Source: Candidatus Hydrogenedentota bacterium (GTDB taxonomy: Bacteria > Hydrogenedentota > Hydrogenedentia > Hydrogenedentales > CAITNO01). From it: 64,000 nt of DNA. Below the pieces are notes generated by a model, which was not told the DNA's origin, searched no databases, and saw only the letters and a list, made by a program, of their open reading frames with translations. The DNA lies in contig JAKOTZ010000017.1 of the NCBI GenBank assembly GCA_029776995.1, positions 27,341-91,340 on the forward strand, given 5' to 3'. Positions 12,673 through 58,985 of the stretch are shown one piece after another. The translations under genes were made by a program, and so were the position numbers. Each line of letters opens with the position of its first letter. Within the stretch, counting starts at the first letter, position 1.

Positions 12673-12701
12673 TTTATTGATACGGGAATGACTGATACTA
12701 T

Positions 12702-12728
12702 CATGGAGCCTGATCTTCAGGCTCCATG
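12702..12728 (+). other. Perfect 12-bp-stem intercistronic hairpin between pstS and pstC.
   Basis: catggagcctga-tct-tcaggctccatg: 12 of 12 inverted-repeat positions pair, with a 3-nt loop. The ORF-track ATG at 12726 lies inside the stem. Confidence 0.7.
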
Positions 12729-12749
12729 ATAGCGCTCTGCGTAACTGAC

Positions 12750-14941: not shown

Positions 14942-14950
14942 GGATCCATC

Positions 14951-15802: not shown

Positions 15803-15855
15803 TACACTGGATAACCGGACGGCGCGGCGCGCCGGACCGCAGGAAGGGATAAAGC

Positions 15856-16956
15856 ATGCACGCACACTTTCTGAGGGAGGTGGCGCTGATCAAGGACCTC
15901 ATCGCCCGGCAGGGCATGATGGTACATGAAAACTTTGTGATGGCCATGGAGGCCTTCATTGACGGGGATGCCGCCCTGGGTAAACGGGTCCTGGAAATCG
16001 AGTCCGAAGTGGACAGCAGCGAAGTATCCATTGAGGAAGAATGCCTGAAAACCATCGCCCTTTATCAGCCCGTGGCGGATGACCTTCGCCTGCTGATCTC
16101 GGTTATCCGCGCAAACCACAACCTGGAACGCATCGGCGACCAGGCTGCCCGCGTCGCCCGTTTTGCCGGGCTGGTGCTTCCCCAGTCCCTGGAACCCCTG
16201 CGGCTCATGGTGCGCAATCTGGCCGCGCTGACTTCCATGATGATTTACCGCGCCGTACATTCCCTGGTGGAACGGACTGGAGACGAGGCGCTGCTGATCT
16301 GGCACGTCGACCGCCTGGTGGACCGCCTGCACGATGAAACCGCCCTGCGCATCCAGCGGGAAGTTACCGAAAATCCGGCCGCCGTAACAGACCTGTTTAC
16401 CGCGCTGGACGCGATTAACCGCATCGAGCGTTCCGCGGACCACGCGGCGAATATCGCCAAAGCCGTGCTTTATCTCGTGCTCGGGCACATCGTCCGCCAC
16501 CACCGCAAACAGACGATTCGCGAACTGCCGCTGCCCAAAGTGCGGCTCCTCTTCGTGGACGACAGGGATGCCGGCGCGGCCCGCATGGCCCAGGCATGGG
16601 TTAACCACGCCCACGGCGACCGCTTTGTCGCTGAAAGCGCCGCGCTCAGCCCCGCTGATCCCAATCCGCTGGTCGCCCCCGTCATGGCTGAACTCGGAGC
16701 GGATATCACGGCCTATGCGCCCAGAGGACTGCGGGAATATTTCGAGTCGGAACGGCCTCTGGATTTTGTAATCGTCCTGGGAAATCCCGATCTGCTGGAC
16801 GCCCTCCCCAACCTGCCTGGTACCGCGTGCCTCGCCTGGAGCCATCCGGACCCTAACGCCGGACCGGATTTCGCGGACTCCACGGACGCGCTGCGCGGTT
16901 ACCGGGACACCCTCACCGGTGTCCTGGACCGATGGGTTAAAATGTTGCTGCGCTGA
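15856..16956 (+). CDS. phoU: PhoU-family phosphate signalling regulator fused to a C-terminal catalytically degenerate ArsC/low-molecular-weight phosphatase-like domain.
   Basis: Residues 1-220 are a tandem PhoU domain (two PhoU-type repeats, including DxxRIxD-like NLERIGDQAARVAR and AINRIERSADHAANIAK). Residues ~225-366 (VRLLFVDDRDAGAARMAQAW...HGDRFVAESAALSPADPNPLVAPVMAELGADI...LDFVIVLG) align with the ArsC/low-molecular-weight phosphatase fold, but the CX5R P-loop Cys and Arg are replaced. Confidence 0.8.
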   Translation: MHAHFLREVALIKDLIARQGMMVHENFVMAMEAFIDGDAALGKRVLEIESEVDSSEVSIEEECLKTIALYQPVADDLRLLISVIRANHNLERIGDQAARVARFAGLVLPQSLEPLRLMVRNLAALTSMMIYRAVHSLVERTGDEALLIWHVDRLVDRLHDETALRIQREVTENPAAVTDLFTALDAINRIERSADHAANIAKAVLYLVLGHIVRHHRKQTIRELPLPKVRLLFVDDRDAGAARMAQAWVNHAHGDRFVAESAALSPADPNPLVAPVMAELGADITAYAPRGLREYFESERPLDFVIVLGNPDLLDALPNLPGTACLAWSHPDPNAGPDFADSTDALRGYRDTLTGVLDRWVKMLLR

Positions 16957-33707: not shown

Positions 33708-34271
33708 ATGGTTTCACGGGAAGAGGAACAACTGGACGTTAACGGAGAGATAACCCGGGACTGGGCCCGCTGGTTCTGGCCGGCGCTGATTGTGGCCCTG
33801 ATCCTGATGATCCTGCTGCTGTGGGCGGGACAGCGCCCAAAGCCTCGGGCATCCGCCGTACGGGCCCGCCATATCCTGATCACCTTCAACGCGAACGACG
33901 CGGTAGACAGAAGCCGCGCGCTCCAGCGCGCCATGGAAATCCGGGGCCGACTACTCCACGGTGAATCGTTTGAATTTCTCGCCCGGCAGTACAGCGATGA
34001 TTCTTATTCCGCCCGACGGGGCGGCGACCTGGGCTGGGCCGAGCGCGGAACGTATGAAAAAGAGTTCGACACCTATTGCTGGCAGGCTCAGATCGGAGAA
34101 ATCAGCGACATTATCCAGACCAAGCACGGTTTCCACATCATCCAGGTCACAGACCGGTACATCAGTGACGCCGAACGGTATGAGATGGAACTCGAAGAAC
34201 GGGCACGGTCAGCCGCCGGCGGCGCACAGGAATCCGGGGAAAAGCCAGAAGCCGCCCCGCAGGCGCCCTGA
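33708..34271 (+). CDS. Membrane-anchored PpiC/parvulin-type peptidyl-prolyl isomerase.
   Basis: GGGAG Shine-Dalgarno. A transmembrane segment. Rotamase block VRARHILITF...GGDLGWAERGTYEKEFD...HGFHIIQV. Confidence 0.7.
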   Translation: MVSREEEQLDVNGEITRDWARWFWPALIVALILMILLLWAGQRPKPRASAVRARHILITFNANDAVDRSRALQRAMEIRGRLLHGESFEFLARQYSDDSYSARRGGDLGWAERGTYEKEFDTYCWQAQIGEISDIIQTKHGFHIIQVTDRYISDAERYEMELEERARSAAGGAQESGEKPEAAPQAP

Positions 34272-34333
34272 CGATTCTGCGCTAAAGGCTGACAACGCGC
34301 GATTCCTCTGAAAAACAGCACGGTCAACAGAAC

Positions 34334-34364
34334 GCGGCCATTTCCTGAAACAGGAGATGGCCGC
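34334..34364. terminator. Strong hairpin between convergent genes, with no U-tract.
   Basis: gcggccatttcctg-aaa-caggagatggccgc: an approximately 13-bp stem with one mismatch. It lies between the + strand rotamase stop (34271) and the - strand hydrogenase operon end (34417). Confidence 0.4.
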
Positions 34365-34416
34365 GGTGCTATGAGGAACATCACGGGCACGCCCATGATG
34401 AGGGGGACGGCCCTGA

Positions 34417-34983
34417 TTACGCTTCTTTCTGTTGGCTTTCTTTCTGCGCTTTGCGGGCGTACTGCTCCAGAAGCGACGGCACCTTGTCGGGCGTCATGTC
34501 GCCGAACACGTCGTCATTCACCATGACCACGGGGGCCAGGCTGCAGGTTCCCAGGCAGCGCGTGGCGTTGAGCGAAAACAGGCCGTCTTTGGTGGTCTCG
34601 CCAAAGTGTATGCCCAGCTCTTCGCTCAATTTTTCGGACACCCGTTCCGCTCCCTTCACGTAACAGGCCGTCCCAAGGCAGACGCTGATGACATAACGCC
34701 CCCTCGGTTCCGTCCGGAAGAAGTGGTAAAACGTCGCCACGCCGGTAACCTTGGAAGTGGACACCTGAAGCAACTGGGCAACCGCGTTCAGCTGATCCTG
34801 CCCGAGATAACCGTAGTGTTCCTGCACCTTGTGCAGCACGCGGATCAGCTGCCCTTCCGGGTGCTCGTCGGCCCGGCAGGTTTCGATAAAGGCCACGATT
34901 TCCGGGGTCAGGGCCGCCCGGGCCGCGGCCATCACCGCTTCACGATTATCCGTTGAACCGTTACAGCAGCAGTGGGTACTCAT
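34417..34983 (-). CDS. [2Fe-2S] thioredoxin-like NuoE/HndA-type subunit of the hydrogenase complex.
   Basis: The Cys pattern CLGTC...C...CLGTC(S) of NuoE-like ferredoxins. Its ATG overlaps the upstream stop as TAATG. Confidence 0.85.
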   Translation of the reverse strand: MSTHCCCNGSTDNREAVMAAARAALTPEIVAFIETCRADEHPEGQLIRVLHKVQEHYGYLGQDQLNAVAQLLQVSTSKVTGVATFYHFFRTEPRGRYVISVCLGTACYVKGAERVSEKLSEELGIHFGETTKDGLFSLNATRCLGTCSLAPVVMVNDDVFGDMTPDKVPSLLEQYARKAQKESQQKEA

Positions 34984-36752
34984 TATCGTATTCCTCTCGG
35001 CAGTCTGGGCGCGTAGTGGGTGTGAAGCAGGGCGTGCGCCTTTTCTCCGCCCGGCTCGCCAAGGTATTCCCGATAAAGCCGCTGGATCGCGGGATTATGG
35101 TTCGAACTCCGCAGCGGTTTATTGCTGTCAATGGCGTAGAGCGCGCTGGCGCGTTTGGCCAGCAGTTTCGGATCGAGAATGGTATACCCTTTGGGCGGAT
35201 AAGGCTGGCCGCCGCCGCCAATGCAACCGCCCGGACAGGCCATCACCTCGATGATGTGGAAGGTTTCTTCGCCGTTCACCACCTTGTCCAGCAGCATCTT
35301 GGCGTTTTGCAGGCCGTTGGCCACGCCCACTCGGAGGGTCAGTTCGTCGTTCACCTTAAGGTCCCGAACCCGCAGCCCTTCCACCGCGCGCACTTCAGTA
35401 AATTCCATTTTCTCGGGCGGACGGCCGTTGATTACCTCGGCGGCCATACGCAGCGCCGCTTCCAGCACCCCGCCGGTCGTGCCGAAAATATCCGCCGCGC
35501 CGGTGGATTCTCCCAGGGGCGAGTCAAATTCTCCGTCCGGCAGGTTTGACAGGTCCAGGCCGTAGCTCTTGATCATGTAAATCAGCTCGCGGGTTGTCAG
35601 CACGGCGTCGGTCTGCGGCGTGCCGTCCGGCATGCTCAGTTCGGGACGGCGCGATTCGAATTTCTTGGCCGTGCAGGGCATGATGGACACCACGAAAATA
35701 TCTTTCGGGTCTATGCCGGAAATTTCCGCGTAATAGGTTTTGATCAGGGATGACATCATGGACATCGGCGAGCGGCAGGACGACGCGTAGGGTATCAGTT
35801 CCGGATAAAACCGCTCCAGGAAGTTCACCCATCCCGGCGAACAGCTGGTCAGCAGCGGCAGCCGCTCGCCCCGTTTGAATCGCTGGATAAATTCCGTCGC
35901 CTCCTCCACGATGGTCAGGTCGGCGGTGAAATTGGTATCGAATACCCGGTCAAAGCCCAGCATGCGAAGCGCCGTCACCAGCTTGCCCGTGCACGGCGTT
36001 CCGGGCGCCATGCCGAAACCTTCGCCGATCGTCGCGCGGATCGCCGGCGCGGTATGGACCACCACGTGCTTGCCGGGGTCCGCGAGCGCCCGCCACACGT
36101 TGTCCACGTAACTCTTTTCGATGAACGCGGCCGTGGGGCAGGCATTCACGCACTGGCCGCACTGGATGCACACGGACTCGTCCATCGGACCGCCAAACGC
36201 CGGCGAAACAACGGTTTTAAAGCCCCGCCCGTGCTGGCTCAGGTTGTGCACCCCCTGCACCTCGGCGCATACCCGGACGCACCGGCCGCAAAGAATGCAT
36301 TTTTCGGGATCCCGGACCACCGCCACGCCGGACCGGTCTATCGGGAAGCGTTTCCGCTCGCCGTCATAGAGGCGCTCGCGGACGCCCATGGTAAACGACA
36401 GGTTCTGCAGCTCGCAGTTCCCGTCCCGGTCGCACGTCAGGCAGGCCCGTGGGTGGTTGTCCAGCAGCAGCTCCACAATATCCCGCCGAGCCTGGCGGAT
36501 GGCAGGACTGTTCGTCTGCACCTCCATCCCTTCCCAGACCTGCACGCTGCAGGAGGCCATGTAAAAAGGCACGCCCTTCACTTCCACCACGCATACCCGG
36601 CAGGAGCCCTGAAGGCTCAGCTTGGGATGGTAGCAGAGCCTGGGGATCTGCACGCCCAGGTGCTTTTCCGCCGCTTCCATAATGGTCGTGCCTTTGGGCA
36701 CCTGCAGCGGCACGCCGTCTATCGTCACGTTTACCAGTTCTTTCTTGCTCAT
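34983..36752 (-). CDS. hydA: [FeFe]-hydrogenase catalytic subunit (HydA/HndD-type, with N-terminal ferredoxin-like domains).
   Basis: N-terminal 2Fe-2S and 4Fe-4S cysteine clusters. H-cluster motifs L2 MPCTAKKFE and L3 EVMACPGGCIGGGGQ. L1 reads TSCSPGW. The ATG at 36752 (MSKKELV) is preferred over the ORF-track start at 36806. Confidence 0.9.
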   Translation of the reverse strand: MSKKELVNVTIDGVPLQVPKGTTIMEAAEKHLGVQIPRLCYHPKLSLQGSCRVCVVEVKGVPFYMASCSVQVWEGMEVQTNSPAIRQARRDIVELLLDNHPRACLTCDRDGNCELQNLSFTMGVRERLYDGERKRFPIDRSGVAVVRDPEKCILCGRCVRVCAEVQGVHNLSQHGRGFKTVVSPAFGGPMDESVCIQCGQCVNACPTAAFIEKSYVDNVWRALADPGKHVVVHTAPAIRATIGEGFGMAPGTPCTGKLVTALRMLGFDRVFDTNFTADLTIVEEATEFIQRFKRGERLPLLTSCSPGWVNFLERFYPELIPYASSCRSPMSMMSSLIKTYYAEISGIDPKDIFVVSIMPCTAKKFESRRPELSMPDGTPQTDAVLTTRELIYMIKSYGLDLSNLPDGEFDSPLGESTGAADIFGTTGGVLEAALRMAAEVINGRPPEKMEFTEVRAVEGLRVRDLKVNDELTLRVGVANGLQNAKMLLDKVVNGEETFHIIEVMACPGGCIGGGGQPYPPKGYTILDPKLLAKRASALYAIDSNKPLRSSNHNPAIQRLYREYLGEPGGEKAHALLHTHYAPRLPRGIR

Positions 36753-36775
36753 ATGCCTGTCCTTTTCCGGCGGAC

Positions 36776-38959
36776 TCAGACCCTGGCCACCGCGTCGAAA
36801 CGGCACACCTCAAAACAGCGGCCGCACTTGATGCACTTGTTCTGGTCTATCACATGGGGCTCTTTGCGGGTGCCGCTGATGCACGACACCGGACAGTTCC
36901 GCGCGCACATCGTGCAGCCCACGCATTTGGCCGCGTCTATCTCGTAATGGATCAGCGCCCGGCATTTCCGCGCGGGGCACCGCCGTTCGGTAACGTGCGC
37001 GATGTACTCCTCGCGGTAATACTTCAGCGTGCTCAAAACCGGATTCGGCGCCGCCCGGCCCAGCCCGCACAGCGACGTGTGCTTCACCAGCTGCGCCAGA
37101 CGTTCCAGTTTGTCGATATCCTCGAGCGTTCCTTTCCCCGAGGTAATCCGCTCCAGGATTTCCAGCATCCGTTTGGTGCCTTCGCGGCAGGGGGTGCATT
37201 TCCCGCAGGATTCATCCTGGCAGAAGGCCATGAAGAATTTGGCTACGTCGACCATGCAGTCCGTTTCGTCCAGCACGATCATGCCCCCGCTGCCCATGAT
37301 CGACCCCAGTTTTCCCAGGGTGTCGAAATCGATCGGGGTATCGATCAGATGCGCCGGGATAATGCCGCCCGCCGGGCCGCCGGTCTGCACGCCTTTCAGG
37401 GTGCGCCCGCCCGGCACGCCGCCCCCGATTTTTTCCACCACCTCCCGGATGGTCGTGCCCATGGGCACTTCCACCAGGCCGGTATGGTTCACTTTCCCGG
37501 CAAGCGCGAATACCTTGGTGCCTCCGCTGTTTTCCGTGCCCACCCGCGCGAACCATTCCGCGCCGTACGTCAGGATCGCCGGCACATTCGCGAAGGTTTC
37601 CACGTTGTTGATTACCGTGGGCTTGCCCCACAGCCCGCTCTCCGCCGGAAATGGCGGGCGGATCCGCGGCTGGCCGCGCTTGCCCATGATCGAATGGATC
37701 AGGGCGGTCTCTTCACCGCACACGAACGCGCCCGCGCCCAGCCGGATGTCAATGTCCATGCTGAAACCGGAACCCAGAATGTTTTTCCCCAGCAGTCCCA
37801 GGGCCCGGCACTGATCCAGCGCTTTTTCAATGCGCCGGATCGCCAGCGGATATTCCGCGCGCACGTAAAAATACCCTTCCTTCGCGCCGACCGCGTAGCC
37901 TCCGATCAGCATCCCCTCGATCACGCTGAACGGGTCGGACTCCAGGGTGCTGCGGTCCATGAACGCTCCGGGATCGCCTTCATCCGCGTTGCAGATGATG
38001 TAACACATGTCCCGGACGTTCTTCCGGGTAAGTTCCCATTTCTGTCCGGTGGGGAAGCCGCCGCCGCCCCGCCCCCGGAGCTTGGACGTCTTCACCTGCT
38101 CAATGACCCACTCCGGCTCCCCTTTCATCAGCGCCATCGCCAGCGCCCTGAATCCGTTGTACCGGATATATTCATCAATATTCTCGGGGTCCACTATTCC
38201 GGCGTTGCGCAGGGCAATGCGGTTCTGGCTGCTGAAAAAGGCCACATCGCCATACAGGTCAAAGTAATTCAGGCTGATCGGCAGTTCCGTTACCCGCAGG
38301 TCTTCCACTGCATGCCCGCCGATCAGATGCTCCCGGACTATACGCCGCGCGTCTTCCGGAGTCTTCACGTTGTATGCCGTATGCGACGGCCGCACCAGCA
38401 CGGTGGTGGCCCCTTCAGGGCGGGGAACCGAACAGAAGCCCAGGCATCCCACTTCTGAAATGCGCACCCGGTCCGGTCCCAGTTCCGCCTCTTCGAGGGC
38501 CGCGCGAAAAACCTTGGCTACACTGCCGTTCACGCAGGCGCCGCAATGGCGGCTGTCGCAGACCACGATCTGCCAGTCCGCGTTGAAATCCCCCGCGTTA
38601 TCCAGCACGTGCGCCGCTAGCGGATTTCCGTTCAGCACATGCTCGACGAATATGCGGTGCGCCAGTTCCGCGTCTACCCGCTCATACTTCACCGGCATTT
38701 TCCCCGGAATCAGCACGCCAACGATCGGCTCACAGCTGCACCGTCCCGTACACCCCACCCGGTGCAGCCGGATGTCTGTGCGGCCGCTGGTCCGGATATT
38801 CTTCTCAAATTCCTGCCAGACCTGCTGGGCCCCCGCGGCGTTTTCACAGGTGGCCGACCCCACCTGGATCCGGATCGCCTGGCCGAACTCGCGTTCCTGC
38901 AGCCGCTTCAGGGTATCCTGCAGCAGTTTCTGATATGCTTTTTCGACTTTGGCGGTCAT
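36776..38959 (-). CDS. NuoF/HndC-like flavoprotein subunit (NAD(P)H-binding, FMN, Fe-S) of a bifurcating-type hydrogenase.
   Basis: N-terminal NuoE-like 2Fe-2S domain. NuoF core (GRGGGGFPTGQKW, CNADEGDPGAF, VCGEETALIHS). C-terminal 2x[4Fe-4S] ferredoxin (CVGCTMCARNCP, CIKCGRCFEVC). Confidence 0.9.
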   Translation of the reverse strand: MTAKVEKAYQKLLQDTLKRLQEREFGQAIRIQVGSATCENAAGAQQVWQEFEKNIRTSGRTDIRLHRVGCTGRCSCEPIVGVLIPGKMPVKYERVDAELAHRIFVEHVLNGNPLAAHVLDNAGDFNADWQIVVCDSRHCGACVNGSVAKVFRAALEEAELGPDRVRISEVGCLGFCSVPRPEGATTVLVRPSHTAYNVKTPEDARRIVREHLIGGHAVEDLRVTELPISLNYFDLYGDVAFFSSQNRIALRNAGIVDPENIDEYIRYNGFRALAMALMKGEPEWVIEQVKTSKLRGRGGGGFPTGQKWELTRKNVRDMCYIICNADEGDPGAFMDRSTLESDPFSVIEGMLIGGYAVGAKEGYFYVRAEYPLAIRRIEKALDQCRALGLLGKNILGSGFSMDIDIRLGAGAFVCGEETALIHSIMGKRGQPRIRPPFPAESGLWGKPTVINNVETFANVPAILTYGAEWFARVGTENSGGTKVFALAGKVNHTGLVEVPMGTTIREVVEKIGGGVPGGRTLKGVQTGGPAGGIIPAHLIDTPIDFDTLGKLGSIMGSGGMIVLDETDCMVDVAKFFMAFCQDESCGKCTPCREGTKRMLEILERITSGKGTLEDIDKLERLAQLVKHTSLCGLGRAAPNPVLSTLKYYREEYIAHVTERRCPARKCRALIHYEIDAAKCVGCTMCARNCPVSCISGTRKEPHVIDQNKCIKCGRCFEVCRFDAVARV

Positions 38960-39228
38960 GGGATGCTTCCCTTCTGCGCTAACCGCCGGAGAACCGGCGG
39001 ATACATTTTTTGGGTTCCGTGTGTTATTATGCACCCCATTCCGGCAACTGCTTCAATACAGACTTTTGTTCAGCAGACAAAACAATTACCGTTTTTGAGT
39101 TGGATTATATAAATTTTATTGAATTTTTTATGATTTTTCGGTATAAGGCGTAAAAATTTTTGATATCAGCGCATTTTAAAATAAAGATTTTTTTCTTTAA
39201 CATCAATTACGAGAAGTTTTTCCTTATT
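38960..39228 (-). promoter_or_regulatory. AT-rich upstream/leader region of the hydrogenase operon, which also holds the 3' end of ubiB.
   Basis: About 70% A+T over roughly 270 bp in a 65%-GC genome. Contains the inverted repeat TTTTGT-N7-ACAAAA at 39064-39082. Confidence 0.4.
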
Positions 39229-40920
39229 TTATCGCTCCCCGCCCCACAGCATCGTCAGCACAAGATACAGCCCTAGCACCCCCGCCACAAGGTACCCCAA
39301 TATCCCCACACGAACCAGCGCCGAATCCGTCGTGATCACCAGGCTCGACCCCACGATCAGCGCCGCCGTAATCATCGCTATCGCGTTGCGGCGGCTTGCC
39401 CGCTCTATCGTCCGCCCCAGCGCCTCAAGATGCTCATGATGCACCTGGATCTTTACCCGCCCGCGCCTTAACTGGCGCAACACCTCCGCCAGGTCTTCCG
39501 GAACCTGCCGGCTGAAACGCCACCAGAGGCGGGCCTGCTCCCGCCCCTGCCGCGCCATGCCCGCCGGGCTGAACCGCCGCGTTATCAGCCGCTCAATGTG
39601 AGGACGCAGGATGGGAAGCATGTCCAGTTGCGGATCCAGCGTGCGCCCCACCACCTCTATGGTAGCCAGCGCCTTTAACAGCAGGCTGAACCGCGGCGCC
39701 AATTCCAGCCCATGTCTGCGGATAATCTCCAGCGCCCGTTCCATCCCCCGGGCCACCTGGCCGCCGCTGACAATCGTTTTGGCTTCAAACGCGATGAATT
39801 CCGCCAGTTCGTGGGCAAGCGCCTCCGGATTGCCCGGATCGGCGCCGGTGGAAAGGGCCAGTATGGCCTCCATGCAGGCGCGCGCGTCATTTGTAAAAAT
39901 CGCCCAGAAAAGGTCGGCCAGGCGCTCGGCATCCTGCGCGTCCAGGTAGCCCGCCATCCCCAGGTCCAGAATGGCGATCCGGTTGTCCCGTGCCAGCAAT
40001 ATATTGCCCGGATGCGGGTCCGCGTGAAACAGGTGATGCTCAAACACCATCACGCACAGCGTTTCCGCCCCGAGCTTTGCCACAACCGCCGGGTCCGAAT
40101 TCCTGCTTTCATATTCTTCCACCGCGTCGATCCGCACCCCGTCAATCCATTCCAGCACCAGCACCCGGTCATTGGACAATTCCTCCACCACATCCGGAAT
40201 GATGACCCGGTCGTCATGGCGGAAATTCTCGCCGAACTGCCTGGCCGCCCGCGCCTCAATGGTGAAATCCATTTCCCGGCGTATGCTGCGCGCGAACTCA
40301 TTAACAATCCCGACTGGATCCAGCGCGCGGGTGTCCATACGCTCCGCCAGCCATTCCGCCACGGATTGCAGCAGCAACAGGTCAGATTGGATGGTACGCA
40401 CCGCGTCAGGCCGCTGCACCTTCACCGCTACTACCTTTCCGTCCGAGGTTACCGCGCGGTGGACCTGGCTCAGGGAAGCCGCCGCCACGGCCTGTTCTTC
40501 AAACGTCTTATAGGCTGATGCCAGCGGCGCCCCTGCCGCCGCTTCAACCATCGGGCGGATATGCTCAAACGGCAGCGGCGGAACACGGTCCTGCAACTGC
40601 CCCAGTTCGCCGGCTATCCCGTGGCCGACAAGATCCGGGCGGGTGCTCAGCACCTGGCCGAATTTGATGAACGTGGGGCCCAGTTCCTGAAGCGCCAGCC
40701 GAAGCCGCTCCCCGAACGTCTCCGGCGGACCCGCGGGCTCCTCCAGGAGATTCAGGCCCCGCAGCATCCGCGCCGGGAGGCTCTCATGAAAGCCCAGGCG
40801 CCGAAGCACATCCGCGAAACCATGCCGCGCGAACACCCGCAGAATTTCGGCCATGCGGATGGCATTCACCGTATTCCGCCCGAGGCGGGTATGCGTGATC
40901 ACCGAAGCGCCATACGCCAT
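39229..40920 (-). CDS. ubiB: UbiB/ABC1-family atypical protein kinase.
   Basis: ABC1 motifs: GPTFIKFGQVLSTRPDL, AAASLSQVHRA, ADPHPGNIL. Two C-terminal transmembrane segments. Confidence 0.8.
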   Translation of the reverse strand: MAYGASVITHTRLGRNTVNAIRMAEILRVFARHGFADVLRRLGFHESLPARMLRGLNLLEEPAGPPETFGERLRLALQELGPTFIKFGQVLSTRPDLVGHGIAGELGQLQDRVPPLPFEHIRPMVEAAAGAPLASAYKTFEEQAVAAASLSQVHRAVTSDGKVVAVKVQRPDAVRTIQSDLLLLQSVAEWLAERMDTRALDPVGIVNEFARSIRREMDFTIEARAARQFGENFRHDDRVIIPDVVEELSNDRVLVLEWIDGVRIDAVEEYESRNSDPAVVAKLGAETLCVMVFEHHLFHADPHPGNILLARDNRIAILDLGMAGYLDAQDAERLADLFWAIFTNDARACMEAILALSTGADPGNPEALAHELAEFIAFEAKTIVSGGQVARGMERALEIIRRHGLELAPRFSLLLKALATIEVVGRTLDPQLDMLPILRPHIERLITRRFSPAGMARQGREQARLWWRFSRQVPEDLAEVLRQLRRGRVKIQVHHEHLEALGRTIERASRRNAIAMITAALIVGSSLVITTDSALVRVGILGYLVAGVLGLYLVLTMLWGGER

Positions 40921-41050
40921 GATTCTCTCTCCGGGGATAAGCCCTGTTATTGGCAACGATCCCATCGTTTCTCTTATTATGGAACAAAAGGAAAACCAAA
41001 CGCGTCCCCGTGTCGGACGCGGGAAACCCTTGTACACCGGGATCGGCAGG

Positions 41051-41847
41051 TGAATCCGGAACGACTGCTCGAATTGCTGCAGACGGTAGCCTCCGGGAAA
41101 TTATCTCCCGCGGACGCGCTGGATCGGTTGCGCGTGCTGCCTTTTGAATGTCTGGACGGCGCCACGGTGGACCATCACCGTGAGCTTCGGAAAGGCCACC
41201 CCGAAGCCATCTTCTGCGAAGGAAAAACGCCGGAACAGGTGGCGCAGATTGCCGAACGCCTGGCGCAGCGTTCCGGGGGGCGGGTGCTTGGAACCCGCTG
41301 CGATACCGCCCGCGCGGAAGCGGCTCGACGCGCGCTGGGCGATGAGGGGTTTACCTATCACGCCCTCGCCCGGTGTTTCACCCTGAGCCTTACCCCTCCG
41401 ACCCCGGCGCCCGGCCCGGTTGCCGTGGTGTGCGCGGGAACCAGCGATCTGCCTGTGGCTGAAGAGGCCGCCGTTACCCTCGAATTCCTGGGACATCCGG
41501 TCGACCGCGTCCAGGATGTGGGCGTGGCCGGCCTGCACCGGCTCCTCGACCGCCTGCCCCAGCTGCGCCATGCCCGGGTGGTCATCGTGTGCGCCGGCAT
41601 GGAGGGCGCCCTGCCCAGTGTGGTGGCAGGGCTGGTGGCTGCCCCGGTTATCGGCGTGCCGGTCAGCGTGGGATATGGCGCGGGAACCGGCGGGTTCGCC
41701 GCGCTGCTGGGCATGCTGAATTCCTGCGCCACAGGCCTGACTGTGGTCAATATCGACAACGGTTTCGGCGCTGCTATGGCCGCTTCAGGCATGCTGCGCA
41801 TGGCGGCGGAATACCAGAACCGGCAGAACGAATCGCCTAAAGGTTAA
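41051..41847 (+). CDS. larB: LarB-type PurE-like carboxylase (nickel-pincer nucleotide cofactor biosynthesis).
   Basis: GTG start at 41051. N-terminal LarB extension (LSPADALDRL...EAIFCEGKTPEQV). PurE-like core (VAVVCAGTSDLP...VIVCAGMEGALPSVVAGL...VIGVPVS). The long ORF-track version (from 40561) is an antisense shadow of ubiB. Confidence 0.75.
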
Positions 41848-41852
41848 TTCCC

Positions 41853-43046
41853 ATGGGAAGAACCGCCTGGTTTAACTGTTACAGCGGCATCAGCGGAGAC
41901 ATGACGGTAGGCGCGCTTATCGACGCGGGCGCGCCCTTTGACGCGATCGAGCAGGCCCTGGCATCCCTGGAAGTGCCGGGCTTCCGCGTGCGCGCGGAAA
42001 AAATGACTAGGCGGGGGCTGGGCGGAACGGCTTTTCGGGTGGACGTGGACCCGGACGCCCCGCGCCCCCACCGACACCTTCGCCATATGGTGGAAATCGC
42101 CCAGCGGGGAAACCTCCCGCCCCGTGCCCGGGAGAACGCCCTTGCGGCTTTTCGCCTGATCGCCGAAGCCGAAGCCGAAGTGCACGGCATTCCCGTGGAA
42201 AAGGTTCATTTCCACGAGGTCGGCGCCATAGACTCCATCGTGGACATCATCGCGGCGAACGTGGCGTTGGACCTGCTGGACATCACCCGGGTCGTCGCCT
42301 CGCCGATCGCGGTCGGGTCGGGCACGGTTGCCTGCGACCACGGGATCCTGCCGGTTCCCGCGCCGGCCACCGCCCTGCTTCTGCGGGGCCTGTCCGCCCG
42401 CGTGGGACCGCCGGAATGCGAACTGGCCACCCCCACGGGCGTGGCGTTGCTGCGGGCCTGGCAGGCGGAGTCCGGGGCTCCCGCCTGCTTGACGGCCAGT
42501 GCCGTCGGATACGGATTCGGGTCCCGGGATCTCTCGGACCGGCCCAATGCCCTGCAGGTTATCCTGGGCGAACCCGGTGAAACGCCAGACACGCAGCGGG
42601 ACCGGGTCGCGGTCCTTGAAGCGGTGGTTGACGATCTCTCCGGGGAATGGCTGGGCGAAGCCGCGGGCGCCCTGATGGAAGCGGGCGCCGTGGATGTGTG
42701 GATGGCCCCCGCTATCGGAAAAAAGGGACGTCCCGCCCAGTGTATTACGGTGCTCTGCCCCCCGGAACGGGAGCGGAAGGTCCTGGATGTGCTGTTCCGC
42801 CATACCACCACGCTGGGCGCGCGCTGCCGGCACGAAGAGCGGATCATCCTCCGGCGCGACACGCAGACCCAGGATACGCCATGGGGACCGGTGCGGATTA
42901 AACTGGGATACCTTGACGGCCAGAACGTGACCGTTCACCCTGAATTTGAGGACTGCCTGAAGGCGGGGCGCGCGGCCGGCATTCCGCCCAGGCAGGTGGC
43001 TGAATACGCCGTCACCCGGTGGCGGCAGGAAAAGGGTTTGCCATGA
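41853..43046 (+). CDS. larC: LarC-family (DUF111) nickel insertion protein.
   Basis: N-terminal FNCYSGISGDMTVGALIDAG signature of the LarC/UPF0272 family. Confidence 0.85.
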   Translation: MGRTAWFNCYSGISGDMTVGALIDAGAPFDAIEQALASLEVPGFRVRAEKMTRRGLGGTAFRVDVDPDAPRPHRHLRHMVEIAQRGNLPPRARENALAAFRLIAEAEAEVHGIPVEKVHFHEVGAIDSIVDIIAANVALDLLDITRVVASPIAVGSGTVACDHGILPVPAPATALLLRGLSARVGPPECELATPTGVALLRAWQAESGAPACLTASAVGYGFGSRDLSDRPNALQVILGEPGETPDTQRDRVAVLEAVVDDLSGEWLGEAAGALMEAGAVDVWMAPAIGKKGRPAQCITVLCPPERERKVLDVLFRHTTTLGARCRHEERIILRRDTQTQDTPWGPVRIKLGYLDGQNVTVHPEFEDCLKAGRAAGIPPRQVAEYAVTRWRQEKGLP

Positions 43047-50684: not shown

Positions 50685-53600
50685 GTGAGTAACGACTTGT
50701 CCTCTTTGTGTGGGCAGCGGATTTTGCTCGCCGGCCACTACGCTGAACCTGTGGTTTTGGAGGAAGCGCGGTTGATTGGTTCCAATGATATGCCAGTCTA
50801 TGAATGCCGTGTTCGTCTTTCCAATGGATCCTTAGAGGAGGTTGTTATTTCCGCGGAAGAGGCCGAGGCTATCTTCAGCAAAAAACATGGCTCTGCCGAA
50901 AAGGATTTGGTGGACGCCGAAAAGCTTCGGCTTCTGATCGAATCGGCTCGAATCCGTTTAGCCTATGCGTATGACCAACAGTTTGCGGTGAGTCTTTCTG
51001 GCATCCGGACGTTGCCGCATCAGATTGAAGCGGTGTACCAGGCAATGCTTCCTCAGCCCAGGTTGCGTTTCTTGCTGGCAGATGATCCTGGAGCCGGAAA
51101 GACAATCATGGCCGGGCTCCTGATAAAGGAGCTAAAGTTGCGTGAGGCGATTGATCGCATCCTCATCCTATGTCCCGCGCCGCTCACCGTGCAGTGGCAG
51201 GACGAGATGCTTCGCTGGTTCAGCGAGCCTTTTGACATTATCTTTTCCGCTGTCGACCAACAGCAATTGACCAATCCATGGCAGAGGTCTTCACAGATCA
51301 TTGCGTCCATTGACTACGCCAAGCAGGAAGACGTGCGCGAGCGTGTCTGGCAACAGCGGTGGGATCTCGTCATCATCGACGAGGCCCACAAGTGTTCGGC
51401 CAGGACCGCCACAGGTGGACAGAATCGAGAATCCAAAGTCGCGACAACGAAGCGCTATGACCTGGCCTTGCGTCTCACATCTCAGGCAGACCACGTTCTC
51501 CTCCTGACGGCCACACCCCACCATGGGGACGAAGACAAATTTGCTCATTTCCTGCGACTCATTGATCCGGATCTTTTTCCGGAACCGCACCGGCTGGCAA
51601 AACAGGCCGGTGAAATTCGGCAGAATGTCTTTCGACTGGGAAAAGATTCACCATGGTGCTTGCGGCGTCTCAAGGAAGATCTTCGGGATGCGAACGGCAA
51701 GCGGCTTTTTCCTGATCGTCATGCCAGGACTGTCGCGTTTACGCTGAATAGCGACGAATACGCTCTCTACAAAAGCGTAACCGCATACATCAATGAGTTT
51801 ATCCCGCAACAGACCGGGCAAAAGCGTTCTTCTGCGGCGTTGACCCGAACTGTCCTGCAACGAAGGCTGGTGAGCTCCACCTGCGCGATACACGAGTCCC
51901 TCAAACGGCGTCTGAAAAAACAGGAAGGCCTTCTGGAAGAACTTGAGGGGCTCACGCCGGACCAGCGCGCCAAACGATTGGCCGCTTTGCAGGGTCGACG
52001 GTCTGATGCCGAACAGGATGAAGACGATCTTGACGATGCGGAACGGGATCAATTGGTTGATGAGTATACGACTGCGCAGGAACTTGAACAGTTGCGTGCG
52101 GAGATCTCCGCCCTCAGGGAACTTGTCGAGCAGGCGCGAAGGGTTCGTGAAAACGCGAATGATTCCAAACTGGCCGCATTGAAGAAATGCCTCAATGATG
52201 CCCAGTTTCAGGACCTGAAGGATGGTCGGGGAAAGCTTCTGATCTTTACGGAACACCGGGATACCCTTGGCTACGTGCGCGGGCATCTGGAACGGTGGGG
52301 GTTCAGCACCTGCGAAATCCATGGCGGCATGAACCCCCATGAACGCAAACGCACTCAGGAGGTCTTTCGGACCAGTGCGCAGGTGTGCGTCGCCACGGAA
52401 GCTGCCGGCGAAGGGATCAACCTCCAGTTCTGCCACCTGATGATCAATTATGATATGCCCTGGAACCCGACCCGGCTGGAGCAGCGATTAGGGCGTATTC
52501 ATCGCATTGGCCAGGACCGGGATGTCTATGTTTTCAACTTCGTGGCCACGGATTCCGAGGACGGACAGCCCATTGTGGAAGGCCGGATTCTTCATCGACT
52601 TCTGGAAAAACTTGACCAGATGAACGAGGCCCTTGAAGGTCGCGTTTTCGATGTGATCGGCGAAGTACTGTCCCTGAACGACGTAAACCTCCCGGATATG
52701 CTCCGTGATGCAGCTTATGACCCCAGGCGGCTCGACGAATACCTCGACCAGATCGACCGTATCGACCCAGTAAAGCTTAAAGAATACGAAAAAGCCACGG
52801 GTATTGCGCTCGCGCGCAGCCATGTGGATTTTTCCGCGTTTCAGCAACGGAACCTCGAGGTTGAGGAAAAGCGGCTGATGCCTCGATATGTCGAGGCGCA
52901 ATTCATTGCGGCCGCCCGTGAAGTTGGCCTTCGGGTCGAGCCGAGAGCCGACGGGCTGTGGCGCATCGAACATGTCATTGCGGATCTTCGTTCGGAAAGG
53001 CTGCGCTCTGTTCAAAAAATCGGAAAACCGGAATCCGCCTATCGTAAGATCACTTTTCACAAACAGCACCTCGAGCAGGACGCCCACCTGGATGCCGTGC
53101 TGGTAGGTCCTGGCCATCCGCTCTATGCGGCGGTGGATGAGAAGCTCAATGAGCGTCTGGAAACGTTGGTCGGAGGTATTGGTTTCTTCATCGATCCCTT
53201 GTGCAGAGAACCTTATCGTATCCATTTCCTTGAGATTTCAATTCTCGGCACGGACTCGAAAGGAAACAATGTGCCGCTTTATGGTGAACTCCTTGCTGTG
53301 CGGGAAGAAATTGGGAAGTGCGAAGTCATCCCAAGCGACATCCTCCTCAACCTGGCGGCACATCCGCGCCCACCGAGAGAAATCGATACGAAAACCCAGG
53401 CTGCGAGCGTGTCACAAGCCATCGATTTTTTAAAAAGCACCTATCAGCTCGAGTGCCGCGCCCGTTGTCAGCGCGAGCGACAGCATTTCGCGCAGATTTG
53501 CCGGGAGTATCTGGAAAAGTCGTTCAAAGCCCGGATCGACCACGCCCAGCGAAGGGCGATGGAGCTTGCCGCCGAAGCAGTTTCCAAACCGGAGTTCAAG

Positions 53601-54212
53601 TTGGCTGCGGACGAGGCCAAAAAAGACGTAGATGAACTTGAGCGCGCACGCCAGGAAAGGCTCACCGGTTTAAAACAGCTTGAAACTGCCAGAACCGGGC
53701 CAATTAAACATGTGGGGACGGCCTTTGTACTCCCTCCAGATGCCGACATGCCAGCCCAGCTCGCCGATCTGGCCGAGGATCTCGATCCGAATATCCGCCG
53801 GCAGGTCGAGATCGCCGCGGAAGACAGGGTCGTTGAAGCGCTGGTCGCCGAGGGCTTTCCCCCTGACCGCATTGAGCGGGTCGGCCATCTGCATTTGGGA
53901 TTCGACATCCGGGCCCAAAGGATCGCCGATGAAAATACCGGCGAAATTTTTGTGAAAAGAATCGAGGTCAAAGGACGCAGGCGGGGACAGCCGGTAAGGC
54001 TTACCACCAACGAGTGGTACAAGGCCCAGCAACTGGCCGAAACCTACTGGCTGTACGTGGTGTGGGACCCCCTGGGAGATACTCCGGAAATCGTGCGCAT
54101 ACATAACCCTGTTGCCAAACTCGACCATGCCAAACGGGAGATCGTGGCGGCGAGATTCTATGAAATCTCTGCCGAGGCGGTGCAGAATGCTGGATTGCGG
54201 GAGATGAGGTGA
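50685..54212 (+). CDS. SNF2/Swi2-family helicase with a C-terminal DUF3883-like (restriction-endonuclease-fold-like) domain. It is the helicase component of a helicase-methylase-ATPase defence module.
   Basis: GTG start after AAAGGA. Helicase motifs I LADDPGAGKT, II VIIDEAHK, III LLLTATP, and VI QRLGRIHRIGQ. A coiled-coil middle region. The C-terminal ~100 aa (VKRIEVKGRRRGQPVRLTTNEWYKAQQLAETYWLYVVWD) resemble DUF3883. Confidence 0.85.
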   Translation: MSNDLSSLCGQRILLAGHYAEPVVLEEARLIGSNDMPVYECRVRLSNGSLEEVVISAEEAEAIFSKKHGSAEKDLVDAEKLRLLIESARIRLAYAYDQQFAVSLSGIRTLPHQIEAVYQAMLPQPRLRFLLADDPGAGKTIMAGLLIKELKLREAIDRILILCPAPLTVQWQDEMLRWFSEPFDIIFSAVDQQQLTNPWQRSSQIIASIDYAKQEDVRERVWQQRWDLVIIDEAHKCSARTATGGQNRESKVATTKRYDLALRLTSQADHVLLLTATPHHGDEDKFAHFLRLIDPDLFPEPHRLAKQAGEIRQNVFRLGKDSPWCLRRLKEDLRDANGKRLFPDRHARTVAFTLNSDEYALYKSVTAYINEFIPQQTGQKRSSAALTRTVLQRRLVSSTCAIHESLKRRLKKQEGLLEELEGLTPDQRAKRLAALQGRRSDAEQDEDDLDDAERDQLVDEYTTAQELEQLRAEISALRELVEQARRVRENANDSKLAALKKCLNDAQFQDLKDGRGKLLIFTEHRDTLGYVRGHLERWGFSTCEIHGGMNPHERKRTQEVFRTSAQVCVATEAAGEGINLQFCHLMINYDMPWNPTRLEQRLGRIHRIGQDRDVYVFNFVATDSEDGQPIVEGRILHRLLEKLDQMNEALEGRVFDVIGEVLSLNDVNLPDMLRDAAYDPRRLDEYLDQIDRIDPVKLKEYEKATGIALARSHVDFSAFQQRNLEVEEKRLMPRYVEAQFIAAAREVGLRVEPRADGLWRIEHVIADLRSERLRSVQKIGKPESAYRKITFHKQHLEQDAHLDAVLVGPGHPLYAAVDEKLNERLETLVGGIGFFIDPLCREPYRIHFLEISILGTDSKGNNVPLYGELLAVREEIGKCEVIPSDILLNLAAHPRPPREIDTKTQAASVSQAIDFLKSTYQLECRARCQRERQHFAQICREYLEKSFKARIDHAQRRAMELAAEAVSKPEFKLAADEAKKDVDELERARQERLTGLKQLETARTGPIKHVGTAFVLPPDADMPAQLADLAEDLDPNIRRQVEIAAEDRVVEALVAEGFPPDRIERVGHLHLGFDIRAQRIADENTGEIFVKRIEVKGRRRGQPVRLTTNEWYKAQQLAETYWLYVVWDPLGDTPEIVRIHNPVAKLDHAKREIVAARFYEISAEAVQNAGLREMR

Positions 54213-54215
54213 ACA

Positions 54216-54806
54216 GTGGAGCGAAGTGAACTTACCGAACTGCACTACATTACGCCTATTGCCAATTTGCCATCCATTCTCCGGCATGGCATTCTGTCTC
54301 ATAACCGCGCCAAACGTATTGAGCATCAATCTGTGGCAATGAATGAGATTCAAGACCGACGGGCTAAAGTGGTCGTTCCCGGCGGGAAAAAACTCCATGA
54401 TTATGTAAATTTGTATGTCTGCGCCAGAAACCCGATGATGTACAAATGTCAGGCGCAGTTCAAGGAAATTTGCGTTCTGAAAATCAGCACTGATGTAGTG
54501 GATCTACCTGGGGTAGTGATTACCGACGGTAATGCTTCCGGAGACTATGTGCGGTTTTCGGCAGCGCCGAAGGGGTTGGCGATTGTGGATCGGGATTGGA
54601 CCTTTGCGGATGATTGGCGAGACCCCGATCAGATTCAGTATTATCATAAAAAGGCTGCCAAGTGTGCCGAAGTGTTAGTGCCGGATCAGGTAAATGCGGA
54701 TTACATCATGGGCGCCTACGTCGTGTGTCAGGAATCCCAAGAGACGATCAAGGATTTGGTCCAGCATCTTTTTGTGGTAATAAATGGCCATCTTTTTTTT
54801 AGGTAG
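54216..54806 (+). CDS. darT: DarT-family (DUF4433) DNA ADP-ribosyltransferase toxin.
   Basis: GTG start 4 nt after the helicase stop. N-terminal LHYITPIANLPSILRHGILSHNR and C-terminal AEVLVPDQV signatures of DarT. GC content is about 48%. Confidence 0.85.
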   Translation: MERSELTELHYITPIANLPSILRHGILSHNRAKRIEHQSVAMNEIQDRRAKVVVPGGKKLHDYVNLYVCARNPMMYKCQAQFKEICVLKISTDVVDLPGVVITDGNASGDYVRFSAAPKGLAIVDRDWTFADDWRDPDQIQYYHKKAAKCAEVLVPDQVNADYIMGAYVVCQESQETIKDLVQHLFVVINGHLFFR

Positions 54807-54816
54807 GAAGAAAGGT

Positions 54817-55935
54817 ATGGTTAAGGTTATTATGGGCAATATATTTGAATCCCGGGCGCAAACCCTGATCAACACAGTGAACTGCGTTGGAGTTATGGGG
54901 AAAGGTGTGGCCCTGGAATTTAAAAAGCGCTTTCCCGAAATGTTTGAAGATTACGTCCGGCGGTGCGAGGCCAAGCAGGTCCATCTCGGTCGTCCCTACC
55001 TTTTCAAGCAGATGTTTCCGCCCTGGATTCTCAACTTTCCGACTAAAGACCATTGGCGGTCTGTTGCGCGCCTTCAGGATATCGAGGAGGGATTGCGTTA
55101 CCTCCAGCAACACTATACGGAGTGGGGCATCACCTCTCTGGCTGTACCACCCCTGGGGTGTGGTCATGGCCAACTCGAATGGCGTGTGGTCGGACCGACT
55201 TTGTACAGGCTCCTGATGGATTTCAATATTCCAGTTGAGCTTTATGCGCCGTTCGGCACGCCCCATGAGGAACTCCAGCTTTCATTTCTGGACAAGTCAC
55301 AAGCAGCGGAATCTCAGAAAGCGGCTCCATATAACATTGATCCCGCATGGGTAGCCGTTGTGGAAGTGCTCAAACGCATCGAGGAGGAGCCGTTTCATAG
55401 GCCTGTCGGAAGAACGACATTTCAGAAGATCGTCTATTTTGTAAACGAATGCGGTATTCCAACCGGCTTGACATACCAGAAGGGAAGCTACGGTCCTTAC
55501 GCACCTGCCCTAAAGGAGCTACTCACCGCCCTGGTGAACAACGGCCTTGTGCACGAGAAGAAACTTGGGCGCATGTTTGCCATCCAGGTCGGTCACACCT
55601 TTCCCGACGCCCAAAAAGCTTATGAACAACAGATTAAGGAGTGGGATCCGATCATCAACAAAGTTGCCGATCTTTTTATGCGGGTGAATACCCAGCAGGC
55701 CGAGGTCGCCGCAACGGTGTATTTTGCCGCCCAAGAGGCAAAGACCAGATCGGAAGAGATGCCCACGGAGAAAGATGTCCTCGATGCCGTCATGAAGTGG
55801 AAGCAAAAGCGCAGACCGCCTCTGAACGAAAAAAATGTCGCTCTGACAGTGCGCAACCTGAACATGTTGAGCTGGCTCGGGGTCAAGGTAAGCGACGAGT
55901 TACCCATCACCGAAGAGGATGTCCTGCATGTCTGA
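54817..55935 (+). CDS. darG: DarG-family macrodomain antitoxin (ADP-ribosyl-DNA glycohydrolase).
   Basis: GAAGAAAGG Shine-Dalgarno. N-terminal TARG1/DarG-type macrodomain (NTVNCVGVMGKGVALEFKKRFP...PPLGCGHG). A C-terminal ~200-aa domain. Confidence 0.85.
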   Translation: MVKVIMGNIFESRAQTLINTVNCVGVMGKGVALEFKKRFPEMFEDYVRRCEAKQVHLGRPYLFKQMFPPWILNFPTKDHWRSVARLQDIEEGLRYLQQHYTEWGITSLAVPPLGCGHGQLEWRVVGPTLYRLLMDFNIPVELYAPFGTPHEELQLSFLDKSQAAESQKAAPYNIDPAWVAVVEVLKRIEEEPFHRPVGRTTFQKIVYFVNECGIPTGLTYQKGSYGPYAPALKELLTALVNNGLVHEKKLGRMFAIQVGHTFPDAQKAYEQQIKEWDPIINKVADLFMRVNTQQAEVAATVYFAAQEAKTRSEEMPTEKDVLDAVMKWKQKRRPPLNEKNVALTVRNLNMLSWLGVKVSDELPITEEDVLHV

Positions 55936-58960: not shown

Positions 58961-58985
58961 CGTATTGAGATTCGGAGGGCCTAAC

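Follow-up and report, generated by a model that had tools for sequence, protein, structure and literature searches.

A putative HydABC-type [FeFe]-hydrogenase of Candidatus Hydrogenedentes with a common serine variant at the H-cluster motif L1

The analyzed window, a 64-kb stretch of a Candidatus Hydrogenedentes genome, contains three adjacent genes on the minus strand in the order hydB-hydA-hydC (Table 1). HydB and HydC are the NuoF-like and NuoE-like partners of the catalytic subunit HydA that the sequence-only reading had recognized, and Pfam, NCBIfam and PDB matches bear out both identifications. The spacer between hydB and hydA is 23 nt long, while the hydC ATG and the hydA stop codon overlap by one nucleotide, which suggests translational coupling of these two genes. 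A scan of positions 34200–39400 for promoters and terminators returned sites no more numerous than in shuffled sequence. The longest ORF in the hydA frame begins at a GTG at 36806; however, homologs are 585–592 aa long and, thus, it is the ATG at 36752 that starts the gene. hydB may begin either at its GTG or at an internal ATG, at 38959.

Table 1. Positions of the hydB-hydA-hydC genes and of the sequence features discussed in the text.
Feature	Coordinates	Strand	Basis or remark
hydB, NuoF-like flavoprotein subunit, longest ORF 752 aa from GTG	36776..39034	minus	Pfam, PDB matches
HydB GAFMDR, residue 356	37952-37969	minus	Ala/Met signature
HydB GAGAFVCGEETAL, residue 433	37700-37738	minus	Phe signature
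HydB GGPAGG (GGPAG residues 552-556)	37364-37381	minus	SLBB region
HydB signature CVGCTMCARNCP	36890-36925	minus	
hydA, [FeFe]-hydrogenase catalytic subunit, 589 aa	34983..36752	minus	Pfam, NCBIfam NF040763, PDB matches, conserved cluster ligands
H-cluster motif L1, TSCSPGW, residues 302-308	35829..35849	minus	translation
Ser305 codon TCG; equivalents CpI Cys300, A. woodii Ser301, T. kivui Cys299	35838..35840	minus	alignment, PMC10021017
H-cluster motif L2, MPCTAKKFE (Met358, Cys360, Lys363, Glu366)	35655..35681	minus	alignment, translation
H-cluster motif L3, EVMACPGGCIGGGGQ (Met504, Cys506, Cys510)	35205..35249	minus	alignment, translation
hydC, NuoE-like thioredoxin-like [2Fe-2S] subunit, 188 aa	34417..34983	minus	Pfam 2Fe-2S_thioredx 2.5e-52, NCBIfam NuoE/HoxE

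HydA consists of an M3-type F-domain (a [2Fe-2S], a His-ligated [4Fe-4S] and two further [4Fe-4S] clusters), an H-domain and a small-subunit-like C-terminus; Pfam detected no PAS or other signaling domain in the protein besides these. The Pfam matches are Fe_hyd_lg_C (PF02906, 3.3e-92), Fe_hyd_SSU (PF02256, 2.8e-24), Fer2_4 and NADH-G_4Fe-4S_3. The protein passes the group A model TIGR02512 (503.9 bits, cut-off 405.95), as well as the NCBIfam model NF040763, named "NADH-dependent [FeFe] hydrogenase, group A6" (825.7 bits, cut-off 765, model positions 1–571). Its scores are below the cut-offs of NF040762 for the clostridial ferredoxin hydrogenase (568 bits, cut-off 900) and, by far, of TIGR04105 for monomeric group B enzymes (186.6 bits, cut-off 450). 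Judged by sequence, this is a HydABC-type enzyme, belonging to group A3 in HydDB-style classification, the class of the electron-bifurcating HydABC hydrogenases (Bfu family).

The feature that drew attention to the locus is motif L1. The canonical L1, TSCCPxW, in which the second cysteine is a ligand of [4Fe-4S]H, is not matched by HydA, which reads TSCSPGW in frame, as translation confirmed; CTGACCAGCTGTTCGCCGGGATGG occurs a single time (minus strand, 35852–35829), in frame with the 589-aa ORF. The serine, Ser305, was proposed to occupy the position of the cubane ligand, C300 of C. pasteurianum CpI or C170 of CrHydA1 (precursor numbering), and the ungapped alignment indeed pairs it with CpI Cys300. 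The residue equivalence is fixed by full-length matches to solved structures (E∼1e-179) that contain no gap around L1; the best of these are 8a6t_A (2.6e-179) and 7q4v_A (1.6e-178). The preceding cysteine, Cys304, aligns without gaps to the proton relay CpI Cys299 and is thus retained, as had been stated. L2 fits MPCxxKxxE and L3 fits ExMxCxxGCxxGGGQ, in agreement with their earlier description as canonical.

The rest of the catalytic environment is conserved. In the alignment, HydA keeps CpI residues E279, E282, R286, C299, S319, M353, C355, K358, E361, M497, C499 and C503, together with all 16 ligands of the accessory F-clusters. The proton pathway of CpI (C299, E279, S319, E282 and R286) corresponds to C304, E284, S324, E287 and R291 in HydA.

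HydB is composed of an N-terminal HndB/HydD-like thioredoxin-fold domain, a thioredoxin-like [2Fe-2S] domain, the FMN/NAD(H) core and a C-terminal 2x[4Fe-4S] ferredoxin domain, with Pfam matches to Complex1_51K, NADH_4Fe-4S, SLBB and Fer4 (the last at residues 698–750). Its best PDB matches are all B subunits of the bifurcating family, including 7t2r_B (1.8e-227) and A. woodii HydB (7q4v_B, 2.7e-219), and the alignment spans the full length of both, C-terminal ferredoxin domain included. Losey et al. (2020) described bifurcating β-subunits by Ala/Glu232 and Met234 (GAFMDR), Phe367 (GAGAFVCGEE) and a GGPSG motif found in all of them. HydB shows the first three residues, in GAFMDR and GAGAFVCGEETAL; in place of GGPSG it carries GGPAG, a single conservative substitution. 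The same GGPAG is present in the closest loci, L001, L003 and L004, whereas 63 other loci have GGPSG. A co-directional hydB of the same bifurcating type accompanies hydA in 67 of the 80 related loci.

Serine is not rare at this position of L1. TSCSP[G/A]W was found in 118 of the 120 closest database homologs, the remaining two having no L1 by pattern search. Among 80 loci from GTDB species-representative genomes, collected in part with the peptide pattern MPCTAKKF, which may favor close relatives but not any state of L1, serine is present in 76 (79 of the 83 hydA copies). The Ser-bearing loci are spread over Clostridia, Syntrophus, Verrucomicrobiota, Fidelibacterota, Armatimonadota and other groups, and both codon families encode the serine (54 TCN and 26 AGY codons). 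When representatives are clustered at 50% identity, 28 of 149 (19%) have serine, close to the ∼20% given by Kertess et al. 2017 (PMC5855289). TSCSPGW was also recorded in Melainabacteria (Di Rienzi et al. 2013, PMC3787301); in reviews from 2024–2025, discussion is confined to the relay cysteine or the group B motif. At least about 17 switches between cysteine and serine were counted by parsimony on a neighbor-joining tree, a crude procedure that makes the number indicative only. The sequence-only reading had allowed for an ordinary subgroup uniformly carrying TSCSP. Serine is the majority state of the HydABC-type family, as that idea would have it, but not a uniform one, since T. kivui, Orenia and others in NF040763 carry cysteine. 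The model NF040763 ("A6") does not, therefore, define the Ser group: the Cys-bearing proteins of T. kivui, Orenia, L060, P0125 and P0135 also pass its cut-off. The replacement of cysteine by serine is a common and already published natural variant and, hence, ordinary.

Ser-type and Cys-type sequences are otherwise much alike, and the remaining H-cluster residues are equally conserved in both. The column of Cys304 contains cysteine in 93% of Ser-type and 90% of Cys-type sequences, and no compensating cysteine covaries with the serine in the alignment of the two types. The only other columns in which the cysteine frequency differs by more than 0.15 are 326 (window numbering; 75% vs 52%) and 312 (23% vs 8%), neither of which is specific to the Ser-type. 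In the second sphere, no column separates the types, save three poorly covered C-terminal ones; weak trends are seen at CpI F296 (towards I/L) and at the x of PxW, which is glycine in 86% of Ser-type and 35% of Cys-type sequences. Thus, the alignment offers no perfectly covarying second-sphere residue to account for the natural tolerance of serine, compared to the C115S variant of CrHydA1.

We consider it very probable that the locus encodes an ordinary, catalytically competent HydABC-type [FeFe]-hydrogenase, multimeric and NAD(H)-linked, most likely bifurcating or confurcating, with a known serine ligand variant. This reading starts from direct observations: the sequence itself, the family membership, the conservation of the serine and other functional residues, and the operon context. 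That the serine may serve as ligand and be compatible with normal activity is taken from the literature by analogy to A. woodii HydABC, in whose cryo-EM structure Ser301 was modeled as a cluster ligand (Katsyv et al. 2023, PMC10021017), and which has the normal infrared signatures and activity of a normal bidirectional hydrogenase; we infer that the Hydrogenedentes enzyme would likewise be active and bifurcating. HydA would oxidize or produce H2 at a standard H-cluster, in which Ser305 would take the place of one cysteine among the four [4Fe-4S]H cubane ligands. From the F-clusters of HydA, electrons would reach the FMN in HydB, HydC being an attached subunit. Most likely, NAD(H) and ferredoxin are coupled in the complex through flavin-based bifurcation or confurcation of electrons, the mechanism of A. 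woodii and T. kivui. Selection has maintained the serine, the majority state of the family, for a long time. Counting against this reading are the GGPAG of HydB, the words "NADH-dependent" in the NCBI family name and the result of an NCBIfam scan of 30 large ORFs in the window, among which no HydE, HydF or HydG maturase genes were found.

A sequencing or assembly error in a gene truly encoding TSCCPGW, a possibility raised by the sequence-only reading, has next to no likelihood. Reversion of TCG to a cysteine codon (TGY) takes two base changes, as had been correctly remarked, serine prevails in the closest homologs and the species-representative loci alike, and an error is excluded by locus L001, a 96%-identical gene from an independent assembly that encodes the serine with the synonymous codon TCT. 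The same reading had proposed a non-prototypical hydrogenase, sensory or of an unusual subclass, and the departure of L1 from TSCCPxW could be taken as the mark of a non-catalytic protein resembling groups C/D (HydS) or group B. Sensory [FeFe]-hydrogenase groups deviate around the H-cluster, which fits such a view. Nevertheless, we regard it as highly improbable: HydA has no signaling domain detected by Pfam, retains the relay cysteine with the whole CpI proton pathway and the H-cluster environment, passes both group A models but not that for group B, and has relatives that overwhelmingly carry serine. Moreover, group B is defined by TSCCCP with a supernumerary cysteine (PMC12138974), whereas the motif here is TSCSP, and the Ser-type A. 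woodii enzyme is a normal bidirectional hydrogenase.

The role of the serine and the electron partners of the complex admit further alternatives. Ser305 might not be a true ligand, the cubane being held by three cysteines plus water or hydroxide, or with Cys304 swinging in. According to Kertess et al. (PMC5855289), the neighboring cysteine could substitute as ligand in CrHydA1 C115A, and a serinate ligand is easily protonated and lost; in addition, the A. woodii maps, at ∼3 Å, cannot prove an Fe-O(Ser) bond, which also counts against the preferred reading. However, Ser301 was modeled as a ligand in these maps, and the standard FTIR states and activity need the relay cysteine in place (PMC10021017); Cys304 is about equally frequent in both types, and no other cysteine covaries. 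A non-ligand serine is thus improbable. It is unlikely, though somewhat less so, that the complex is non-bifurcating and purely NADH-dependent, like Syntrophus aciditrophicus HydAB or S. wolfei Hyd1ABC. The name of NF040763 points that way but does not discriminate, since HydA of A. woodii and of T. kivui, both bifurcating, also pass this model. The absence of GGPSG, reported for every bifurcating β-subunit, and locus L025, where a Ser-type HydA stands beside a non-bifurcating-type HydB, also favor it. Against it are the Ala/Met and Phe (GAGAFVCGEE) signatures of HydB, its [2Fe-2S] domain at the N-terminus and 2x[4Fe-4S] domain at the C-terminus, and its best PDB matches, all of which come from the bifurcating family.

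For annotation, hydA is best described as a normal HydABC-type [FeFe]-hydrogenase gene, and the serine calls for no flag as error, defect or novel class. Roughly one in five sequence clusters of [FeFe]-hydrogenases has TSCSPxW, as does the large majority of the sampled HydABC-type relatives. Given the 19% of 149 representatives, the similar published fraction and the active Ser-type enzyme of A. woodii, TSCCPxW is an overly strict diagnostic motif and marks no true family boundary. Altered redox tuning by the serine, as suggested earlier, is possible. A stronger version, in which the choice between cysteine and serine at the [4Fe-4S]H ligand is an adaptive tuning knob instead of a neutral variant, seems to us rather doubtful; it draws on the serine majority specifically in NuoEF-coupled hydrogenases, the use of both codon families and the ∼17 switches. 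If true, serine could shift the potential or protonation of the cubane to suit the NADH/ferredoxin confurcation equilibrium at low H2 pressure. The effect of serine on potential and catalytic bias, and its tolerance compared to CrHydA1, are questions already recognized in the field.

Among known systems, A. woodii HydABC (PDB 7Q4V, 7Q4W and 8A5E; PMC10021017) is one of the closest. Its HydA1 shares 48.5% full-length identity and the domain order with HydA, has the same L1, with Ser301 equivalent to Ser305, as well as the same L2 and L3, and is likewise partnered by a NuoF-like HydB and a NuoE-like HydC. It differs in gene order, in the HndB/HydD-like domain, which the Hydrogenedentes HydB carries as an N-terminal fusion, and in having GGPSG instead of GGPAG; A. 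woodii also belongs to another phylum, and its enzyme is characterized, whereas the Hydrogenedentes one is known from sequence. HydA1 of T. kivui HydABC (PDB 8A6T and 8BEW), the best PDB match, has 48.3% identity, the same architecture and membership in NF040763, but contains the canonical Cys299 (TSCCPSW) at the position of Ser305. The group A1 prototype CpI (40.5% identity) shares its M3 F-domain and its H-domain with HydA, in which all CpI residues of the H-cluster, proton pathway and F-clusters are conserved bar one, Cys300; unlike HydABC, CpI is monomeric and ferredoxin-dependent, with no NuoE/NuoF partners.

The C115S variant of C. reinhardtii HydA1 (PMC5855289) likewise has serine in place of cysteine at this ligand of [4Fe-4S]H. 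It lost most of its cubane, did not take up the [2Fe] subcluster and was inactive, in contrast to the active natural Ser-type enzyme of A. woodii. This inactivity counts against the preferred reading, as serine is not tolerated in every context. Since the natural Ser-type is conserved and, in A. woodii, active, the tolerance of serine depends on the protein context, and the Hydrogenedentes enzyme adds a candidate to the comparison of natural with engineered serine and is not a new phenomenon. The "confurcating" hydrogenases of the Melainabacterium ACD20 (PMC3787301) resemble it in being of the trimeric confurcating type with TSCSPGW at L1; in these two ACD20 proteins a cysteine of L3 is also replaced, by isoleucine, whereas L3 is intact here.

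The L1 motif of the H-cluster in the hydrogenase gene hydA reads TSCSPGW, where TSCCPxW is canonical. The DNA string quoted for this motif in the sequence-only reading occurs once in the window (minus strand, 35852–35829), in frame with the hydA ORF, and both the motif and its TCG serine codon are borne out by this search and by translation of the minus-strand ORF. The longest ORF begins further upstream at a GTG, but the homologue lengths of 585–592 aa place the true start of hydA at ATG 36752.

Features of the hyd operon and other genes of the window
Feature	Position	Strand	Remark
pstS-pstC-pstA-pstB-phoU	11638-16956	+	phosphate uptake operon, complete
hydC	34417-34983	-	NuoE-like, 188 aa; downstream of hydA
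hydA	34983-36752	-	589 aa
L3 EVMACPGGCIGGGGQ	35205-35249	-	translation
L2 MPCTAKKFE	35655-35681	-	translation
L1 TSCSPGW	35829-35849	-	translation
Ser305 codon TCG	35838-35840	-	translation
hydB	36776-39034	-	NuoF-like, 752 aa; upstream of hydA
HydB GGPAGG	37364-37381	-	residues 552-557
UbiB-family kinase gene	39229-41037	-	directly upstream of hydB
larB	40561-41847	+	nickel-pincer cofactor biosynthesis
larC	41853-43046	+	nickel-pincer cofactor biosynthesis
DrmD-like SNF2 helicase	50685-54212	+	putative defence island
DarG-like ADP-ribosyl glycohydrolase antitoxin	54784-55935	+	putative defence island
DUF1156 protein	55919-58960	+	anti-phage-associated; putative defence island
DUF499 protein	58965-61889	+	putative defence island

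Residue equivalence was taken from alignments that cover the full length of solved structures and are locally free of gaps (CpI of Clostridium pasteurianum, A. woodii HydA1, T. kivui HydA1); the mapping is validated, since the alignment numbering agrees with that given by Katsyv et al. 2023. These alignments confirm the proposal that the substitution falls on a ligand position of the cubane, [4Fe-4S]H: Ser305 corresponds to Cys300 of CpI, Ser301 of A. woodii and Cys299 of T. kivui. The proton-relay cysteine is Cys304 in the window protein and Cys299, Cys300 and Cys298, respectively, in the other three. Window HydA keeps the remaining three cubane ligands (C360, C506 and C510), M358, K363, E366 and M504, the proton pathway (E284, E287, R291 and S324) and 16/16 ligands of the four accessory clusters.

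A sequencing or assembly error at the Ser305 codon is ruled out. An independent Hydrogenedentota assembly (locus L001, 96% protein identity) has the same serine with the synonymous codon TCT, and L1 is of the Ser type in 118 of the 120 closest database homologues (TSCSPGW in 117, TSCSPAW in one), the pattern search detecting no L1 in the other two. Identity to these homologues is 69–100%, and their hosts include Hydrogenedentes, Planctomycetota and Latescibacteria.

Nor is the serine rare. Scanning a single genome for each GTDB species gave 80 loci (49–96% identity), hosted by Clostridia, Syntrophus, Syntrophorhabdales, Verrucomicrobiota, Victivallales, Fidelibacterota, Armatimonadota, Gemmatimonadetes and Kapaibacterium. 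Serine is present at 76 loci and cysteine at three (Orenia, a Halanaerobiales MAG and one Armatimonadota MAG); one is a short contig without the motif. Counted per hydA copy, 79/83 have serine. Both serine codon families are in use (TCN 54, AGY 26), which indicates long-term maintenance by selection. Among the 149 best representatives of 50%-identity clusters, 28 (19%) have serine, consistent with the published figure of about 20% (Kertess et al. 2017), and 115 cysteine. In a crude neighbour-joining analysis of 232 H-domains, cysteine is inferred at the root, serine falls into three pure clades of ~30 sequences each, and at least 17 Cys/Ser changes are required. Two Ser-type hydA paralogues lie on the same strand, ~5 kb apart (~1270–1540 and 6886–6895), at L045, L050, L054 and L058, from Syntrophus, Syntrophorhabdales and deltaproteobacteria.

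The public annotation of this exact HydA is 'NADH-dependent [FeFe] hydrogenase, group A6' (Candidatus Hydrogenedentes), and the protein passes NF040763, the corresponding NCBIfam model (825.7 bits; cut-off 765). A purely NADH-dependent enzyme is the minority reading. The model name is no discriminator and is not to be taken as non-bifurcating; it under-describes the chemistry of the family, as the HydA proteins of A. woodii (872.7 bits) and T. kivui (851.7 bits), from ferredoxin- and NAD(P)-dependent, bifurcating enzymes, also pass, as do further Cys-type members. Against a purely NADH-dependent enzyme, HydB finds its top PDB matches among the B subunits of the bifurcating Bfu family (7t2r_B, 1.8e-227; A. 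woodii HydB, 2.7e-219). HydB also has GAFMDR, GAGAFVCGEETAL and extra N- and C-terminal Fe-S domains, three of the bifurcation features of Losey et al. 2020 (PMC7311640); at the fourth it reads GGPAG for GGPSG, one conservative substitution common to its nearest relatives (L001, L003 and L004). A co-directional bifurcating-type hydB occurs at 67/80 related loci, the remainder being mostly short contigs. By these matches, signatures and neighbourhoods, the window complex is most likely electron-bifurcating or confurcating.

Between hydB and hydA lie 23 nt, and hydA shares 1 nt with hydC. Scans for consensus promoters and terminators around the operon gave no more sites than shuffled sequence, and an NCBIfam scan of 30 large ORFs in the 64-kb window showed no HydE/F/G maturase gene. 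HydB residues ~55–145 form an extra N-terminal thioredoxin-fold domain; this fused HndB/HydD-like module can be aligned with the N-terminal parts of 9bov_B and 8oh5_B. The lar genes lie on the strand opposite to the UbiB-family gene, and 50685–61889 (+) is a probable anti-phage defence island.

The residues, family membership and operon of the window hydrogenase are directly observed; its activity and bifurcation we infer. A standard H-cluster would cleave or produce H2, its [4Fe-4S] part being held by Cys360, Cys506, Cys510 and the Ser305 oxygen; a serine ligand is compatible with normal function according to the literature (PMC10021017). Protons would pass via Cys304, Ser324, Glu284, Glu287 and Arg291, and electrons from the HydA F-clusters to FMN in HydB. 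NAD(H) would be handled at this FMN and ferredoxin served by the C-terminal ferredoxin-like domain of HydB, a division of roles that follows the one proposed for the HydABC complexes of A. woodii and T. kivui (PMC10021017).

Comparison of alignment columns between Ser-type and Cys-type sequences revealed no cysteine covarying with the serine as an alternative ligand, and no well-covered column that separates the two perfectly. The strongest local trends in Ser-type sequences are Ile/Leu for Phe at CpI position 296 and Gly over Ala in PxW. The other H-cluster residues are equally conserved in both types, which argues that Ser-type proteins are working hydrogenases. The variant is not tied to bifurcating complexes: at L025 (hydA L1 at 3305) the HydB beside a Ser-type HydA bears signatures of the non-bifurcating type (GTFKDR, AGAYVCGEETAL, neither GGPSG nor the C-terminal 2x[4Fe-4S]), and Cys-type HydA is found in bifurcating complexes, e.g. 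that of T. kivui. Serine is thus neither necessary nor sufficient for bifurcation. One database representative, P0121 (4122 aa), contains seven tandem H-domains (repeat ~444 aa) with L1 TSCCASW or TSCCAGW, the motif proline being alanine; a polyprotein and an artefact of assembly are both possible explanations.

No support emerged for placing the protein in a sensory or unusual subclass: window HydA is an otherwise ordinary HydABC-type [FeFe]-hydrogenase, and its serine is a documented, common natural variant that was already known. Serine at this position surprised Kertess et al. (PMC5855289), because C115S/A/D variants of Chlamydomonas reinhardtii HydA1 lost the cubane and all activity. The cryo-EM structure of A. 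woodii HydABC has Ser301 replacing one Cys ligand of the cubane (Katsyv et al. 2023, PMC10021017), and TSCSPGW was noted in the confurcating hydrogenases of Melainabacteria by Di Rienzi et al. 2013 (PMC3787301).
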